A stretch of 64,000 bases of DNA from Escherichia phage RB14. Shown in pieces: positions 2,448-20,267 of the stretch. Location of the stretch: sequence record NC_012638.1; one strand, given 5' to 3'. Every line of letters begins with the position of its first letter. Position 1 is the first letter of the stretch. A model generated the notes under the pieces. It saw only the letters and a list, made by a program, of their open reading frames with translations, was not told the DNA's origin and made no database searches. A program made the translations under genes and the position numbers.

Positions 2448-4267
2448 TACTGGCTCATCCATTCTTTACGAAGGTCAGCATTATCTCCCATGAGCATTTC
2501 AAAAAGCTCTTTCCAATTCTCAGGAAGTTTAACAACATCATATACTGGGTTTTGAATCATCTCACGATATTCAGATTTTTCCAAAGAACCAAGTCCTTTA
2601 ATATAACGGATGCTATGTTTAGGTAGAGCATCTTTGGCACTCTCATATTCAGCGACTGTATAAAACCATTCTTGTTTTTTACCGACCTGAGCGATGATTA
2701 CAGGAGTTTTGACAAAGCGAATTCTTCCTTGTTCAAACAGTTCTGGCCAATTACTAAAAAATCCGAGCAGAGAAGGATAAATGCTTCCTAAACCATCATG
2801 GTCAGCATCTGTCATAATAGCAATATTATGATAATTCAAGTTTTCAGCTTTTTCACCAAGAACTAATCCAGTGATTGCGCAAATATCAAATAGTTCTTTG
2901 TTTTTAAGCATATCAGCATATGACATACCCCAGCTATTAAGAACTTTACCACGCAATGGATAACCACCGTGAAGTTCTTTATCACGAACATCAATAAGAT
3001 ATCCGATAGCCGAATCACCCTCAGTCAAGAAAAGAGTAGTGTCAGCATCTTTACCACAAAGATTCGCTTTAATATGTTTATGAACCTTAGCTTTAGAAGC
3101 CTTTTTAGCTGCTTTAGTTTCTGCTGCTTTTTCTGCCGCCAATTTACGAGCCAAAGCAGCTTCAATAATCGGCATTAGAATTGCTTCATTATTTAGAATA
3201 GCGCGTGAAATCTTTTTAGCATCAAGCTGAATATGACTACGGATTTCACCAAATGGAGAAGTCAAACGCTCTTTAGTCTGAGAATCAAATCGCATGTTTT
3301 TCATATCACGAACAAACATAACGATAGTCAAACATTCTTTGACACGTGCTTTAGTCACATCAATTTTGAACTTACGTTTGATTTGTGGAATAAGGTCTTC
3401 ACAAATATCATCCATAACACAGTCAATGTGATGGCCACCATTCTTAGTATGAATGTTATTGACGTATGTTAATTGACGAAAACCATCCGGTGAACGACCA
3501 ACCGCAATAGAACAATTTTCTTGTTCTTGAACGATAGCATGCTCATCATATTGGCGTGCATATTTCTTAAAATTGCCCTGAACCTTTTTACCATTAAAGG
3601 TAAATTGAATATCAGGATAAACTACTGCAAGTGTCTGGAGACGATCTAGTGTAATGTCAAGATAAACTTGGGACAGCTCATTAGTTTCAAATGACATAAA
3701 ATCAGGAATGAAAGTAACACGAGTTCCTTTCCATTTTCCAGGAATATCTTCCCATGATTTATTTTCCATGCCATTTGAACAACGAACTACAATATTATTT
3801 TGACCATCACCAGTTTCACCGACAAACATCACAGAAAAAATGTTTGTCAAACTAGAACCAACACCATTCATACCGCCAGTGACGCGTTCTTTATCATCAC
3901 CAAAGTTACCACCTGCTTTTGGAATAGTCCACGCAGCAACTGGACCAGGAATTTCTTCACCGGTAGGTGTTTTGACCATCGCTTGTGGAATACCACGACC
4001 GTTATCTTCAACTGTTACTTGATTGTTTTTAATAGTAACATTAATTTTATTTGCGAATTTAAACTTAGTACGAATACCTTCATCTACTGAGTTATCGATA
4101 ATTTCATCAATAAGCTTAACAAGACCAGGTACATACTGAACACTTTCCCATTTACCAAACAGAAAGCGCTCATGCATTTCATTAGCAGAAGAGCCAATAT
4201 ACATGCCGCTACGCTTTTTGATATGTTCAATATCGCTCAGAATTTTAATTTCATTCTTAATCATCAC
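2447..4267 (-). CDS. 39: DNA topoisomerase II large subunit, unsplit (equivalent to T4 gp39 plus gp60), 606 aa
   Basis: GHKL ATPase and TOPRIM-type motifs in the translation; a single 606-aa ORF where T4 has genes 39 and 60 separated by mobA and a translational bypass. Confidence 0.9.
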   Translation of the reverse strand: MMIKNEIKILSDIEHIKKRSGMYIGSSANEMHERFLFGKWESVQYVPGLVKLIDEIIDNSVDEGIRTKFKFANKINVTIKNNQVTVEDNGRGIPQAMVKTPTGEEIPGPVAAWTIPKAGGNFGDDKERVTGGMNGVGSSLTNIFSVMFVGETGDGQNNIVVRCSNGMENKSWEDIPGKWKGTRVTFIPDFMSFETNELSQVYLDITLDRLQTLAVVYPDIQFTFNGKKVQGNFKKYARQYDEHAIVQEQENCSIAVGRSPDGFRQLTYVNNIHTKNGGHHIDCVMDDICEDLIPQIKRKFKIDVTKARVKECLTIVMFVRDMKNMRFDSQTKERLTSPFGEIRSHIQLDAKKISRAILNNEAILMPIIEAALARKLAAEKAAETKAAKKASKAKVHKHIKANLCGKDADTTLFLTEGDSAIGYLIDVRDKELHGGYPLRGKVLNSWGMSYADMLKNKELFDICAITGLVLGEKAENLNYHNIAIMTDADHDGLGSIYPSLLGFFSNWPELFEQGRIRFVKTPVIIAQVGKKQEWFYTVAEYESAKDALPKHSIRYIKGLGSLEKSEYREMIQNPVYDVVKLPENWKELFEMLMGDNADLRKEWMSQ

Positions 4268-4603: not shown

Positions 4604-4977
4604 TTAAATTTAATGGCTTGAAGAAGACTAATAACTCTCAAGCGACTTCTTTCATCTTTAACTGTAAAGGAAAGAGGGTCACCAGATTTCATAGTGATAG
4701 TGCATCCAAAATCAAAATTTTCGGGAACTTCTTCGAAGAAGTCAAATTCTTCAGCATAAATTAGAACATTACTCTGCATACTGTGAAGAATTTTTCCATT
4801 ATTTCCAGACGCTGTACTAATCATCGTAACATTATGACCTTTCATATCTTCAACGATAAATTCGCTTGTAGATATTACAGCATTAATAGAACCATTCCTA
4901 TAAATAGCAGACATTAGATATTTCTTTTCTTCGCCTTCGCGAATACGATATTTCTTACCGATTTTAAACATAATCAC
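4600..4977 (-). CDS. hypothetical protein, about 123-125 aa
   Basis: ORF table; tabulated start is GTG, an ATG lies two codons in at 4969-4971. Confidence 0.5.
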   Translation of the reverse strand: MIMFKIGKKYRIREGEEKKYLMSAIYRNGSINAVISTSEFIVEDMKGHNVTMISTASGNNGKILHSMQSNVLIYAEEFDFFEEVPENFDFGCTITMKSGDPLSFTVKDERSRLRVISLLQAIKFK

Positions 4978-14986: not shown

Positions 14987-15223
14987 TTAACCACCTATTT
15001 CTGTTGGCGTAAACATTGCAGCATTCTTAGTTTTCCAGTCAGCTGCATCAGAAACTACAGTAGAATATGCCGCCTTTTCAGAAGGAAAGGTCTGATAATG
15101 AGAATCTGCAATACGATGCTCGTTAGAATAGATTTCAAACGGAACAGAAACTTCCATACCTTTAACTTCTTTGCCTTCACCCGCTGGATGAGTAAAGGTC
15201 TTGATGTTAACGAAACCACCCAT
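14987..15223 (-). CDS. soc: small outer capsid protein Soc (RB69-like variant), 78 aa
   Basis: conserved HYQTFPSEKAAYSTV core; N-terminus resembles RB69 Soc as I recall; late promoter and AAGGAG RBS upstream. Confidence 0.8.
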   Translation of the reverse strand: MGGFVNIKTFTHPAGEGKEVKGMEVSVPFEIYSNEHRIADSHYQTFPSEKAAYSTVVSDAADWKTKNAAMFTPTEIGG

Positions 15224-15431: not shown

Positions 15432-15635
15432 TCATTTTGAATGCTCTATAATTAATTTTAAGGCTTTTTCACTGACAAAAATTTCATCAGGACCTTCTTC
15501 TACAACCCAATCAACCATACGAAGCTGATTAGATAAGAGCTCGTATGTGAGCTCTTTGTCATAATTTTTAAATAGCTGGTCAATACGTTTCTTGCGGGCT
15601 TTCTTAAGCTGGCGTTTATTTAAACGAGCCATCAA
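15432..15635 (-). CDS. hypothetical basic protein, 67 aa
   Basis: ORF table. Confidence 0.45.
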   Translation of the reverse strand: MMARLNKRQLKKARKKRIDQLFKNYDKELTYELLSNQLRMVDWVVEEGPDEIFVSEKALKLIIEHSK

Positions 15636-16150
15636 TAACCTCGGTCTTGACGAGCGAAATTTTCAGCATTTTTCAGATAATAAAGTTTAAAGATTTCTTC
15701 AGCTGACATTCCAAGAGCAATGAATTTATTCATGAAAAAGTGAAATTGATCAATCAGTTCAAATTTAATTTCAAGTTGATCTTCAGGAGATAAATCTTGA
15801 ATTTTCTTGGATTGCATTTCAGAATAACGTTTCTTCCAAGGTTTCCATACAGCAGAAGCTTCTTTTTCACCATTACTCATACCGCCAAGAGAAGTATATA
15901 GCTCGCGAGTTTCGTCTGCGATATAATCGTCTTGGTTTCGCAACCAAGCAAGAACTTCTCCTGCAGTTTCAAGTGAATCAGGATGACGATTTGTTTCTGG
16001 TTTATCATTAGCCAAACGAATCTGTAAATGCCGCTGCATATCAAGCATAACCTGCAGTGGGTCAATATTGTGCATAATATTCTCAGCATATGCACGAGTT
16101 GCTTTATCAACACCTTCGATCAAATGAGCACATTCATTAAAGTGAGCCAT
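15632..16150 (-). CDS. 56: dCTP pyrophosphatase gp56, about 172 aa from internal ATG
   Basis: position between soc and 61; the 203-aa table ORF has a hydrophobic 31-aa artefactual extension, the Met at 16148-16150 gives a T4-like length. Confidence 0.7.
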   Translation of the reverse strand: MAHFNECAHLIEGVDKATRAYAENIMHNIDPLQVMLDMQRHLQIRLANDKPETNRHPDSLETAGEVLAWLRNQDDYIADETRELYTSLGGMSNGEKEASAVWKPWKKRYSEMQSKKIQDLSPEDQLEIKFELIDQFHFFMNKFIALGMSAEEIFKLYYLKNAENFARQDRGY

Positions 16151-16221
16151 TATTTTTCCTTTCAATTCATGGATTAATAGATTAATTATACAATAAATAT
16201 ATAAAGCAATAAGGAGGACAT

Positions 16222-16422
16222 ATGGTACAAAAATTAATGGCACTTGTTAATGCCATCAAAGGTAATAAAAAGCGTATAGCTTTTACTATTTCTGCTATGG
16301 TAGGAATTTTACTCTGGAACTTTATTCTATCACCTGTTGCAATTGCACATGGTATTAATATTCCAGTAGTTACTCTTGATACATTCGTAGATTTAGCATT
16401 TGCTTTAGTTGGGTTAATTTAA
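16222..16422 (+). CDS. small hydrophobic membrane protein on the plus strand, 66 aa
   Basis: AAGGAGG Shine-Dalgarno 4 nt before the ATG; fills the 268-bp gap between genes 56 and 61 without overlapping either. Confidence 0.5.
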   Translation: MVQKLMALVNAIKGNKKRIAFTISAMVGILLWNFILSPVAIAHGINIPVVTLDTFVDLAFALVGLI

Positions 16423-17447
16423 ATCTTGGCATATTTAGATAGCCGCATTTTAGCCATCAACCCCTGTGCAATATTATTTTTCATATATTCCATAATTTGT
16501 TCAGGGGTTGCACCTTCCTTTCTAATCATATCATTAACATCTTTTGATTTCCAGGGAGATTTATCCCAAAACATAACCCTTTCTCCTGCATCAACTAATT
16601 TAGTCATTCGTTTGATAGTGTCAGGATGACGAGGTTCATTATCTAAGACCCACACTCGTCTATCTTTAAATGGAACAATTTCTAGGTCTAATTGACCACC
16701 CGTAATAGCTATACCATTTTCAATAAAAAGTGAATCTATAGGTCCTTCTAGAACATATACATCACCATCTTTAACTCGTTCGACTCCATAGATTTTTGTT
16801 GCCTCAGGATAAGCTTTAATGGTGATATATTTTTGAGGAGCATTTTTCTTTAATGCACGTCCTTGAAAAGACTCAGCTTTTCCATTAGCATTATAAATTG
16901 GAATAACAAGACGAGGCTCAGATATTTCCTTTTTATATGTTCCCGGTGCTATGCTATTAACCAATTTAGGCCATTCGGTTGTAAACCAAAGATATTTCCA
17001 TTTATCCTTTGGAATACAACGAGCTTTTACATATTTTATAATTGGATGGTCTTCCGCCAGTTTATCTAATCTAACACATGACGGAAGAGATTTAATTATT
17101 TTCTTCTCAGGTTGTTTAGGAAGTTCTTTAGGTTTTTCTACTGGACGACTTTTACCTTTTTCTTTTCTTATTTCAAAGATATACTCACGATATAAATCAG
17201 GTTCAAACTCCTTTAAATATATTCCGATTGGTGCATGATAGTTACAGTTATAACAATGAATATTTCCTTCATTATTATCACCATAATACCATCCACGAGC
17301 TTTATTCTGGTCGGTTTTTGAATCTCCACAAACAGGGCATCTAAACCGCAATTTAAAAGTTGAACTATTATTTACTTGTGTGAATTTAGGTAAATGAGCT
17401 AATGCACGATACGCAAACTCATTATCAATCCAAGGTATTGATGACAT
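16419..17447 (-). CDS. 61: DNA primase gp61, 342 aa
   Basis: zinc-binding CPVCGD...CYNC motif and TOPRIM core; 342 aa as in T4. Confidence 0.9.
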   Translation of the reverse strand: MSSIPWIDNEFAYRALAHLPKFTQVNNSSTFKLRFRCPVCGDSKTDQNKARGWYYGDNNEGNIHCYNCNYHAPIGIYLKEFEPDLYREYIFEIRKEKGKSRPVEKPKELPKQPEKKIIKSLPSCVRLDKLAEDHPIIKYVKARCIPKDKWKYLWFTTEWPKLVNSIAPGTYKKEISEPRLVIPIYNANGKAESFQGRALKKNAPQKYITIKAYPEATKIYGVERVKDGDVYVLEGPIDSLFIENGIAITGGQLDLEIVPFKDRRVWVLDNEPRHPDTIKRMTKLVDAGERVMFWDKSPWKSKDVNDMIRKEGATPEQIMEYMKNNIAQGLMAKMRLSKYAKI

Positions 17448-17450
17448 TCT

Positions 17451-17615
17451 TTACTCTTCTTTTTCTTTAGATTCCTCTTTCTTCTTTTTAGGAATCTGTT
17501 CAGGGCCTTTATTTACTACAGCACCTGATGTTGTTCCAGTAGAGATATTTTCAGGATTACCACCTGAATCTCCAGCAACCATATCTTCTTTAATAAATTC
17601 TTTATATGTTTTCAT
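17451..17615 (-). CDS. small protein with capsid-targeting-like N-terminus, 54 aa (not in ORF table)
   Basis: my translation MKTYKEFIKEDMVAGDSGG...; GAGGT Shine-Dalgarno; position equals T4 61.1. Confidence 0.4.
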   Translation of the reverse strand: MKTYKEFIKEDMVAGDSGGNPENISTGTTSGAVVNKGPEQIPKKKKEESKEKEE

Positions 17616-17616
17616 A

Positions 17617-17973
17617 TTAACCTCTATTCATAAAAGCATTAAAAATTTGGTCATCAATAGACGGTGCAGTAATATTTTCTGCATCATTTAGCAAATCATT
17701 AATTTCATCAGATAGCATAACACATGTACCTTTATTTCCTGTAATTGTTACTGCGCAATTACGAACGTTTTCTTTATTAAATTTTAGGTTAATATTTTCG
17801 TAATGAAAATCCTTTAATGCTGAATATATTTTTAAAATAAAATTATCTTTTACTACAATAAACCCAACCTCACTATTAAAACGCGGTTCATGGAAACTGT
17901 AATAAACCTTTTCATCTATAAAATCGTATGAAATTTTTTCCATTTTTAAATATGAAAATTCAGAACTATACAT
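17617..17973 (-). CDS. hypothetical protein at the 61.2 position, 118 aa
   Basis: ORF table; position between primase and spackle. Confidence 0.5.
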   Translation of the reverse strand: MYSSEFSYLKMEKISYDFIDEKVYYSFHEPRFNSEVGFIVVKDNFILKIYSALKDFHYENINLKFNKENVRNCAVTITGNKGTCVMLSDEINDLLNDAENITAPSIDDQIFNAFMNRG

Positions 17974-17985
17974 ATTAACCTCTAA

Positions 17986-18279
17986 TTACTCACCTACCAC
18001 TTCAGCGATGATATTTTTATTATTAAAGTTTTTATCACAATACAGAACATAATTATACTGCATTACACCACCAGACTTAAGCTGTTTTTGCACTTCGGCT
18101 TTCATTTCAGGACGATCGCGCTCAACAATATTCATAATATCTGCTTCAATTTGGGTTTCAACTTCAGTCTGATCCGCAGTCATAGACCATTCACACAAAT
18201 CTTTATCATAACCTGCCATAGCAGGCTGAGCAGCACAAGAAGATAAAGCAAAAATTGTAGCAAAGATAATTTTTTTCAT
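17986..18279 (-). CDS. sp: Spackle periplasmic superinfection-exclusion protein, 97 aa
   Basis: signal peptide ending AQPAMA, then mature sequence matching T4 Sp (gp61.3) as I recall. Confidence 0.8.
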   Translation of the reverse strand: MKKIIFATIFALSSCAAQPAMAGYDKDLCEWSMTADQTEVETQIEADIMNIVERDRPEMKAEVQKQLKSGGVMQYNYVLYCDKNFNNKNIIAEVVGE

Positions 18280-18339
18280 GATAATCTCCTCAGTAGTTTA
18301 TGTTTATATAGTATCTCAATTTCCATCAAAAGTAAACAG

Positions 18340-18597
18340 TTATTTTAAAACTTCTGTGTAATCACATGTTACAAACTGTTTCTCTAACTTGACGATTTTA
18401 CGAAAGTATCTTTTGCATTGACGAATCTGCCGCTTCGTAGGACGTACAGCAAACTTAATAAATTCCACTCGACCAAATGGAGGGCTTTCTTCTGCTGGAA
18501 TATCTAACACCAATTCCCACGTATCTGCAATAAGTGCTTTGAATTGCGTATTTTTCCTGACGTTATACGGAGTAGGTTTAAATAAAACAATATGCAT
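18340..18597 (-). CDS. basic protein at the 61.4 position, 85 aa
   Basis: ORF table; position between sp and dmd. Confidence 0.5.
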   Translation of the reverse strand: MHIVLFKPTPYNVRKNTQFKALIADTWELVLDIPAEESPPFGRVEFIKFAVRPTKRQIRQCKRYFRKIVKLEKQFVTCDYTEVLK

Positions 18598-18598
18598 A

Positions 18599-18781
18599 TT
18601 ATCCTCGGCAATCTACTTCACATACTTTCTTGTCATCAATGAAAGCTTTAACTAGTGCTTTATTAACTTCAGCATATTGAGTAGTAGCCCATTGAACGTC
18701 ATCTTTCATCATTGTGATTTCTTTAGTAAACATGTTTTCATTCTTAAACCACCCCATAAAAACTACCTTTACCAATTCCAT
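18599..18781 (-). CDS. dmd: Dmd antitoxin (inhibitor of RnlA/LsoA), 60 aa
   Basis: 60-aa sequence MELVKVVFMGWFKNE... matches T4 Dmd as I recall. Confidence 0.85.
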   Translation of the reverse strand: MELVKVVFMGWFKNENMFTKEITMMKDDVQWATTQYAEVNKALVKAFIDDKKVCEVDCRG

Positions 18782-18839
18782 AACAATCTCCTCATTTAAC
18801 CAACAAGACTACTATACCATAGTCTTGTCAGCTTGTAAA

Positions 18840-20267
18840 CTAAAATTTTAATTCATTCGCCAAAGCATCTAACTGAGCTCGAGTGGATTCATTTCTTTGA
18901 TAACGATTCTGCTCAGCCTGAATCTGTTGTGAACCTGCTACTTCGTTCACTTCAGTTGGAGTAGAATCTTGTTCAATTTCTACCCATTTCTGATTTCCTT
19001 TTTGAACACCCATCAAAAACTTATTCCATTTATTCTTATCGCCATATCGTGATTTGATTTGCTTAATGAGTTGTTGTTCAGCGGCTGCTAACTCCTCGGT
19101 TTCAATGACCGCAAGCATAAAATCAGCTGTTGCTGGAAGACCGGCAGATTCTGCAATATCGCTCATGTTAACATCAGAAGAATCCCAAGCTTGTTTACCA
19201 ACCTGTGCTGCAGTCCAAAGAACAGTTTCGGTTTCAACAGCAAGAGCACGTAATTCCTCAGCAATGGCTTTAACAGTTGTGTAACTATTTTCTGAGTAAA
19301 CTCTAATGCGGCAAGATTTACAAATACCCAGATAGTCGACAATAATGATTGTTGGAACAAAATTCTTTTTGAGCTTCAATTCATTCAAGAGAGACCTGAA
19401 TGTGTTAGCATCTGCCCCACCAGTAGGATACTGTTTAACGATTAAACGACCGAGAGTAGATTTCTCACGCCATTTTTCCATTTTTCCTTTATACTCAGCG
19501 TAAGAAATATGCCCATCATCAATGTCATCAAGAGAAACATCAAGCATATTAGCATCAATACGTTTAGCACAGACTTCTTCTGCCATTTCCATGGAAATGT
19601 AAAGAACATTGTGTCCGAGCTGCAAATAATCTGCTGCCAATGAACACAATCCTAATGACTTACCGACGTTAACGCCAGCCATTAAAACGTTCAGTGTTCC
19701 AGTCTCAGCTCCGCCTTTAGTAATTTTGTTTAGAATTCTGAGTTTAAATGGAACCTTACGAGCTTTATTCATATAAGATAGCCAACGTGCTTCGTAGTCA
19801 TCCATCCAATCATGACCAACGTAGCTATCAAATGAAATAGATAATGCCTGGCGCATGATGTCAGGAATAGCACCAACATCCGGCATTTTCTTATTTCGTT
19901 TTTCCGGAGGAAGCTCAGCATTAGTTTGAATTTCGATTATTTTAGACGTAGCATTAAACATCGCCCTTTGCTGAACATATTTTTCTGTTTCTTTTATTAA
20001 CCAACTGTGGTCTTCCGGAGAATCAGCCAGTTTTGAAATAAGTGTTTTTACACCAGAATATTCTGTTTCAGTAAATGAACTATTTTCTAATGCAACATTT
20101 AACGCATTAATAGATGGAACGCTATGATACTCGTTGACATGAGATTTAATTAATTTGAATGTATTTTTAGCTGGACCACTTTCAAAATATTCTGAATCCA
20201 TATATGGCCAAACTTTTGAAAAATAAGCTTGATCAAATATGAGATGAGAAAGAATAATTTCTACCAC
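18840..20267 (-). CDS. 41: replicative DNA helicase gp41, 475 aa
   Basis: DnaB-family Walker A GVNVGKS; 475 aa as in T4. Confidence 0.95.
   Translation of the reverse strand: MVEIILSHLIFDQAYFSKVWPYMDSEYFESGPAKNTFKLIKSHVNEYHSVPSINALNVALENSSFTETEYSGVKTLISKLADSPEDHSWLIKETEKYVQQRAMFNATSKIIEIQTNAELPPEKRNKKMPDVGAIPDIMRQALSISFDSYVGHDWMDDYEARWLSYMNKARKVPFKLRILNKITKGGAETGTLNVLMAGVNVGKSLGLCSLAADYLQLGHNVLYISMEMAEEVCAKRIDANMLDVSLDDIDDGHISYAEYKGKMEKWREKSTLGRLIVKQYPTGGADANTFRSLLNELKLKKNFVPTIIIVDYLGICKSCRIRVYSENSYTTVKAIAEELRALAVETETVLWTAAQVGKQAWDSSDVNMSDIAESAGLPATADFMLAVIETEELAAAEQQLIKQIKSRYGDKNKWNKFLMGVQKGNQKWVEIEQDSTPTEVNEVAGSQQIQAEQNRYQRNESTRAQLDALANELKF

Follow-up and report, generated by a model that had tools for sequence, protein, structure and literature searches.

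One short reading frame in the genome of Escherichia phage RB14 runs against the genes on either side of it, which raises the question of whether it is a genuine gene and, if so, when it is expressed and what its product might do. The frame, referred to here as dam.1, lies in a stretch of 64,000 nucleotides of sequence record NC_012638.1 that we call the window.

A convergent reading frame between genes 56 and 61

The dam.1 coding sequence extends over positions 16222..16422 on the plus strand (an ATG start, 66 amino acids and a stop) and faces gene 61, which encodes the DNA primase (16419..17447, minus strand) and is its invariant convergent neighbour. Upstream lies the dCTPase gene, gene 56 (15632..16150, minus strand), the genome being dam-less. 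Between the gene 56 start at 16150 (minus strand) and the gene 61 stop codon at 16419-16421 (minus strand) there is a gap of 268 bp with 29% G+C (16151-16418), and the dam.1 ORF shares 4 nt with the gene 61 stop. Its ATG is preceded by the Shine-Dalgarno sequence AAGGAGG (16211-16217, plus strand) and a 4-nt spacer, ACAT. Both features, a 66-aa plus-strand ORF in the 268-bp gap between the dCTPase and primase genes and AAGGAGG 4 nt before its ATG, had been reported in a first-pass annotation of the window and were confirmed at these coordinates. When the gap was shuffled 20,000 times by mononucleotides, an ATG-initiated ORF of 66 codons or more, on one strand or the other, appeared in 0.9% of trials. 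The same annotation had called this the only convincing plus-strand gene, a claim borne out by the annotated T6 record, in which dam.1 is the sole plus-strand CDS between 1 and 64.5 kb, and by a simple screen of the window, which returned no second case of a plus-strand ORF that occupies a gap and has a Shine-Dalgarno sequence.

The window derives from a Tequatrovirus, a T-even phage. Identity to T6 is 99.5% for the 400 bp surrounding dam.1, and over 16100-18900 the closest entry in the phage collection reaches only 97.8%; judged by such comparisons, the window is a T6-like mosaic. Gene 61.2 (17617-17973, minus strand) encodes 118 aa in the window versus 208 aa in T6 and T4, which displaces downstream coordinates from those of T6 by 264 bp. 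Between the window and T4, gp56 is only 70% identical whereas the adjoining gp61 is 99% identical, a contrast that marks a sharp mosaic boundary at the dam.1 locus, and the neighbour of gene 56 is segF in T4 and soc.2/T6ORF029 instead in T6.

Conservation and coding constraint

Conservation in related genomes, which the first-pass annotation had named as a check on the ORF, proved to be extensive. A tblastn search recovered dam.1 in 695 phage records, 685 of which carry at least 80% of the ORF as a single unbroken piece; approximately 500 records match at 90% identity or higher and 194 at less than 60%, and the length variants are all in frame. A profile search of 5.8 billion proteins identified 120 clusters of Dam.1 homologues (41-73 aa), all of them from T4-like phages of Enterobacteriaceae and none with a Pfam domain. 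Syntenic loci were compared from T4, T2, T6, Mosigvirus (PhAPEC2; also F2), Gaprivervirus (TH57, TH15), Kanagawavirus (Q7622, CIP9, PEi26), Jiaodavirus (KLB8), a 175-kb Klebsiella phage and nine IMG/VR contigs. At every fetched locus the dam.1 homologue lies opposite the early-gene strand and is convergent with gene 61, a position that it holds in five Tevenvirinae genera (Tequatro-, Mosig-, Gapriver-, Kanagawa- and Jiaodavirus) and in the 175-kb Klebsiella phage. The stop codons of the two genes are interlocked in most loci, with a longer overlap in Q7622 and a short gap instead of an overlap in KLB8 and Gaprivervirus. Within the collections searched, dam.1 is confined to Tevenvirinae phages of enterobacteria.

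Estimates of dN/dS by the Nei-Gojobori method range from 0.09 to 0.40 (13 of 16 pairwise comparisons with measurable dS). Between genera the synonymous sites of dam.1 are saturated, and the protein is nonetheless kept. On this comparative evidence dam.1 is a genuine protein-coding gene under purifying selection.

A putative late promoter upstream of dam.1

The T4 late promoter consists of TATAAATA at -13 to -6 and requires no -35 element. A published list of 50 T4 sites includes 32 perfect copies and nine in which T(-13) is replaced by A, the commonest natural variant (PMC2988020). Conservation of this T is poor among T4 relatives, and late transcription may run in either direction (PMC2988020; PMC1524935). 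The first-pass annotation had proposed that a plus-strand promoter be sought in 16150-16215. This interval contains a putative gp55-dependent late promoter, AATAAATA (16192-16199, plus strand), which is an A(-13) variant of TATAAATA matching it at seven of eight positions and has a predicted start at ~16205. No sigma70-like plus-strand promoter was found upstream of dam.1, and a by-eye inspection of the upstream sequences revealed no plus-strand MotA box; the only conserved plus-strand candidate is of the late type.

The core of this element, ATAAATA, is present 15-22 nt upstream of the dam.1 ATG in all 11 of the 11 lineages compared, the remaining upstream 60 nt being just 25-50% identical between lineages. 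Depending on the lineage, the octamer opens with A, G, C or T: a perfect TATAAATA precedes dam.1 in two genera (Kanagawavirus and a Klebsiella phage), and the T4 and T2 octamer is GATAAATA, a rarer deviation. The probability of finding ATAAATA in shuffled upstream sequence is 0.004-0.04 per lineage, figures to be read with the caveat that this is a short motif in an A+T-rich spacer. Within the window, ATAAATA is depleted 4.5-fold (nine observed versus 40.7 +/- 6.5 expected) and TATAAATA occurs five times versus 10.6 expected, which is consistent with selection against spurious late promoters. The composite ATAAATA-N5-16-GGAG-N4-9-ATG has a single occurrence in the window versus 0.13 expected. 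One of the nine ATAAATA copies sits 31 nt upstream of the start codon of soc (14987..15223, minus strand). The site of ORF029w, the RB69 homologue of dam.1, is missing from a published HMM-based list of 31 late promoters predicted in RB69.

Given the conserved ATAAATA and the match of AATAAATA, we strongly infer that dam.1 is transcribed from its own gp55-type late promoter. The gp55-dependent transcript would start at ~16205 and carry a 17-nt leader with a consensus Shine-Dalgarno sequence, and dam.1 would be a late gene embedded in the early region.

A perfect TATAAATA also occurs at 4899-4906 (plus strand), within a minus-strand early gene in the 39.1/39.2 region. No credible plus-strand ORF was found downstream of this site, which may be a late antisense promoter.

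Minus-strand elements in and beside dam.1

Conservation at such a compact locus could be attributed to regulatory DNA or RNA, the ORF itself being incidental: the retained element would be the terminator or 3' UTR of gene 61, the promoters of genes 56 or dam, or a late antisense RNA directed against the primase mRNA. Candidates for elements of this kind are present. A MotA-type middle promoter for gene 56 (16185..16208, minus strand; TGCTTTA-N11-TATAAT, reading 16208..16185) overlaps the putative dam.1 late promoter back to back in the 71-bp spacer upstream of the ORF. This pattern has 13 matches in the window versus 2.3 expected, and recurs in the T6-like, Gaprivervirus and F2 loci. On the minus strand, a terminator-like hairpin that may be the gene 61 terminator (16234-16259; 11 pairs, followed by TTTTTGT) lies within dam.1 codons 5-13, ~160 nt beyond gene 61. 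In addition, some T4 regions are transcribed on both strands at different times (PMC2988020).

The distribution of these elements argues against this reading. In T6, ATAAATA falls within the spacer of the minus-strand middle promoter, but the MotA box is located on differing sides of ATAAATA between genera and is missing from many lineages, including the dam+ lineages, Kanagawavirus and Jiaodavirus, in which the ORF, the Shine-Dalgarno sequence and ATAAATA persist. The distance from ATAAATA to the dam.1 Shine-Dalgarno sequence, by contrast, is constant across lineages. As the position of ATAAATA is tied to the Shine-Dalgarno sequence and not to the MotA box, its conservation follows dam.1 rather than the minus-strand promoter, and we rejected the possibility that it is kept as part of the latter. 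The hairpin was detected in T6-type sequence only, being absent from five other genera and, under the scan settings used, from T4, so that conservation of the dam.1 ORF as a carrier of the gene 61 terminator was also rejected. All lineages examined have a GGAG or GGAGG motif before dam.1, a strong Shine-Dalgarno sequence conserved at optimal spacing, and the frame is never broken despite the saturation of synonymous sites between genera. An incidental ORF is for these reasons scarcely credible, and we continue with dam.1 as a protein-coding gene.

Predicted membrane topology of Dam.1

Transmembrane prediction, one of the checks named at the outset, gave a single TM-grade segment at approximately residues 19-42, preceded by a basic N-terminus. 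Hydropathy, Hessa-scale sums and a helix at residues 16-42 of an AF2 model place the TM helix at codons 19-42 (16276..16347, plus strand). The model, made from a 31-sequence alignment (pLDDT 79), has three helices (2-12, 16-42 and 52-62), the last two joined by a loop at 43-51. For RB69ORF029w, an independent prediction by Nolan et al. (published in 2006; PMC1524935) puts a TM segment at 21-41, without a signal peptide. The N-terminal stretch of Dam.1 has a net charge of +1 to +7, and of at least +3 in six of seven lineages, and the C-terminal ~22 residues are TM-grade in few lineages (Hessa sum 5.8-13 in most). Dam.1 is thus very probably a 66-residue single-pass inner-membrane protein, with an N-in/C-out topology predicted by the positive-inside rule. 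The earlier description of the ORF as a genuine gene for a small membrane protein is supported by its dN/dS, by the TM segment, by the central helix of the AF2 model and by the published TM prediction. In T6 the C-terminal segment is more hydrophobic (KD 1.86), and a helical hairpin would be a possible alternative topology for the T6 protein.

The strongest conservation falls in and just beyond the TM helix. W32, N33 and P38 (nt 16315-16335, plus strand) occupy invariant alignment columns, A40, G44, P48 and G64 are near-invariant, and nearly all members have D or E at position 53. Codons 43-66 (16348..16419, plus strand) comprise a turn (G44, P48) and then a short C-terminal helix, for which a periplasmic or interfacial location is predicted. 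An N-in/C-out orientation places the conserved residues in the outer half of the TM helix and in the periplasmic juxtamembrane turn. The protein would accordingly be organised as a basic cytoplasmic N-terminal helix, the TM helix at 19-42 and a periplasmic C-terminal tail of ~22 residues, in which W32, N33, P38, A40, G44, P48 and D/E53 would form a surface packing against another membrane protein, and the buried Asn would drive helix-helix association, like in small bitopic membrane regulators. From the sequence conservation and the model, Dam.1 probably acts by association of its TM helix with a partner in late envelope events.

A conserved L-D/E motif in the protein was considered as a site for the gp21 prohead protease and rejected, as it is not in register when compared by eye with the cleavage consensus. 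After Arg18, the sole tryptic fragment of Dam.1 is a hydrophobic peptide of 48 residues that is expected to be poorly detectable by shotgun proteomics.

Searches outside the family

A phmmer search of Dam.1 against 1.84 billion representative sequences identified no relatives beyond its own family. The long repeat proteins that scored in this search (P0032, P0036 and P0037) were rejected where fetched, their scores being sums of weak repeat matches. The window protein had no match in Pfam or NCBIfam, and no holin family in Pfam was found at E<=10. A Pfam scan of 31 family members gave noise only, without a holin family even at E<=1; one of the 31 matched Ldr_toxin (type I toxin-like, Ldr/Hok type) at E=0.1, which is noise level. 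A sequence-profile search of the PDB returned chance hydrophobic matches alone (E>=0.09). Foldseek comparison of the AF2 model with BFVD found family members only, named holins outside the family appearing at E>6. Finally, when all 917 stop-to-stop frames of the window were searched with the family profile (hmmsearch), dam.1 itself was the only hit, with no paralogue and no similarity to imm or sp.

Divergence, duplication and decay of the gene

Dam.1 diverges rapidly relative to its neighbours, being 25-54% identical between phages in which gp61 is 62-73% and gp56 70-79% identical to those of the window. In Gaprivervirus there are two tandem dam.1 paralogues 8-12 nt apart (fetched loci L012, 1495-1901, and L016, 1295-1701), one T6-like and one of the type found in Kanagawavirus and the Klebsiella phage. 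In contig L015 the second copy is reduced to an N-terminally truncated ORF without an intact start, and TH57 lacks this copy altogether. The start has also been lost in both published T6 records, MH550421 and AP018814, which have ATT at codon 1 (3123-3125 in fetched locus L001, and L019) where the window has ATG (16222-16224), and T6 records consequently annotate a 61-aa product from Met6. No dam.1-like ORF is present in Krischvirus (MIZ2), Slopekvirus KP27 or RB43, in which genes 61 and 56 abut or overlap.

The junction between gene 56 and dam.1 (window 16151-16221) is an insertion hot spot, whereas the junction between dam.1 and gene 61 never changes. At the former, T6 has nothing, T4 has dam, and T2 has dam plus T2_31. 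Q7622 has a small gene annotated as an NTP pyrophosphohydrolase, Klebsiella phage KLB8 a gene annotated with GIY-YIG and adenine-methylase signatures, and pzk-kv8 two genes of unknown function. As far as these comparisons reach, fast divergence, duplication with decay and the T6 start loss are traits of a dispensable accessory gene and not of a core function.

The same traits bear on the label 'putative head morphogenesis protein', which the T2 and T6 records AP018813 and AP018814 give to the product. A helper of head morphogenesis at the membrane, for example in gp20/gp40 prohead initiation, would fit the predicted late timing and membrane location of Dam.1. The label, however, was taken over by transitive similarity and has no evidence behind it. 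Krischvirus, Slopekvirus KP27 and RB43 have the T4 head pathway in common with T4 but no dam.1, the gene outpaces core genes in its divergence, and T6 records lack its start codon. We consider a head-assembly role very improbable, and return to dam.1 as an accessory gene.

Status of dam.1 in databases and the literature

The name dam.1 is used in T6 (MH550421) and T4T (HM137666), and the gene also appears as RB69ORF029w, RB32ORF030w and PHROG 2024. The window protein matches phrog_2024 with E=1.4e-31 (residues 2-66 against profile positions 1-65 of 65), and the T2 annotation reads 'similar to RB69ORF029w; RB32030w'. The T4T/T4 copy is 97-98.5% identical to that of the window and the copies of RB69-type phages ~54%, and Dam.1 / PHROG 2024 has the same size, strand and position beside gene 61 as the window ORF. 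By similarity and position, the window ORF is the same gene as Dam.1 of T4T and T6, RB69ORF029w and RB32ORF030w. PHROG 2024 is listed as of unknown function and all dam.1 database entries are hypothetical. The product names 'Holin' (one UniProt entry) and 'DNA packaging ATPase' are unsupported automatic or transitive labels. In the searchable literature we found no paper on dam.1 under any name, and publications on unannotated T4 genes, T4 ribosome profiling and transcription start sites contained nothing on it.

The gene is therefore not new, having been known as an uncharacterised ORF, and hundreds of T4-like genomes list it as a hypothetical protein. What we add is the case for late expression, the W-N-x4-P motif and the omission from the T4 reference annotation. 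In the T4 references NC_000866 and AF158101, the 309-bp gap between dam and gene 61 is left unannotated, yet the ORF is intact at T4 17738-17938 (3739-3939 of fetched locus L002, plus strand). Edwardsiella phage PEi26 likewise has an intact homologue that is unannotated (1817-2014 of L029, minus strand). This omission affects NC_000866, AF158101 and several other genomes such as PEi26, and screens, proteome databases and CRISPRi libraries based on the T4 reference annotation are blind to dam.1. The combined evidence of purifying selection, a late-promoter core, a motif on the TM face and accessory dynamics justifies adding dam.1 to the T4 annotation.

Possible roles and comparison with known systems

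The best explanation of these data, and one that we consider quite probable, is that dam.1 is a real gene, late, and encodes a single-pass membrane protein that serves as a dispensable accessory modulator of late envelope events. This working view follows from the predicted late timing together with fast divergence, duplication and decay, and loss of the start in laboratory T6. Candidate roles would be in lysis timing or lysis inhibition, or in protection against membrane-acting host or prophage functions. By its sequence features, Dam.1 does not look like a core lysis protein, an assembly protein or an early exclusion protein.

Exclusion was among the roles suggested in the first-pass annotation, which noted that convergent small membrane proteins of phages are often superinfection-exclusion or host-membrane-acting factors. 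In this scenario Dam.1 would act at the inner membrane as an exclusion or immunity factor against incoming phage DNA. Its being a small membrane protein, the presence of sp and imm within 2-8 kb of dam.1, and the fit of fast evolution and duplication to phage-phage conflict all speak for such a role, and T4 Imm and Sp are themselves small envelope proteins from the same early-region neighbourhood. Exclusion in T4 is, however, in place within minutes through the action of two early genes, imm and sp. These lie on the other strand, whereas the conserved promoter of dam.1 is late-type only, with no early or middle plus-strand promoter found, and the family profile detected no similarity to Imm or Sp when searched against all window ORFs. 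The predicted late timing and the lack of similarity to Imm and Sp make classical superinfection exclusion unlikely; the suggestion is not supported, and we regard exclusion or immunity in general as improbable. Dam.1 may yet be a host-membrane-acting factor, the other role that had been suggested.

Alternatively, Dam.1 could be a lysis or lysis-inhibition component that sets lysis timing, whether holin-like, an antiholin or a modulator of holin T/RI. Phage holins (classes I-III) are likewise small, late and membrane-embedded, and holin T and the i-spanin have an N-in/C-out orientation, as predicted for Dam.1. Its predicted late expression and confinement to Tevenvirinae would also fit, and one UniProt entry bears the name 'Holin', albeit as the unsupported automatic label noted above. 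Against this, the 31 members gave no Pfam holin match at E<=1 and Foldseek placed named holins at E>6, the C-terminus (...AFALVGLI) is hydrophobic and uncharged with no basic residues, unlike the charged tail of typical holins, and dam.1 is outside the lysis cassette, ~45 kb from e and ~40 kb from rI. The known lysis set of T4 is, moreover, already complete. We know of no locus mapped at dam.1 by classical r-mutant genetics. Since family and fold matches are lacking, the C-terminus is uncharged and there is no linkage to the lysis cassette, a holin proper is unlikely. A lysis or lysis-inhibition function as a whole is a doubtful prospect, although a modulatory role in lysis timing, for which our expectation is about equally low, belongs to the more plausible specific guesses.

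Beyond an accessory modulator, dam.1 could be an overlooked late membrane factor with a real phenotype, such as tuning lysis or lysis inhibition, or neutralising a membrane-acting host or prophage defence. We view this stronger claim as possible, with the balance clearly tilted against it. If true, dam.1 may have gone unnoticed through 60 years of T4 genetics and in all recent genome-wide T4 screens, owing to its omission from the reference T4 annotation and to the 48-residue hydrophobic tryptic peptide of its product.

For the preferred reading, a modulator that would work through a membrane partner, parallels are found in the host. The small bitopic regulators of E. coli (MgrB, SafA and AcrZ) have 50-70 residues, a single TM segment, an N-in orientation and a short extracytoplasmic tail. 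Dam.1 falls in the same size class and would have the same topology, with conservation likewise in the TM segment and juxtamembrane surface, but shares no sequence similarity with them, is encoded by a phage and is predicted to be late. By analogy, this likeness suggests that Dam.1 may act by binding a larger membrane protein.
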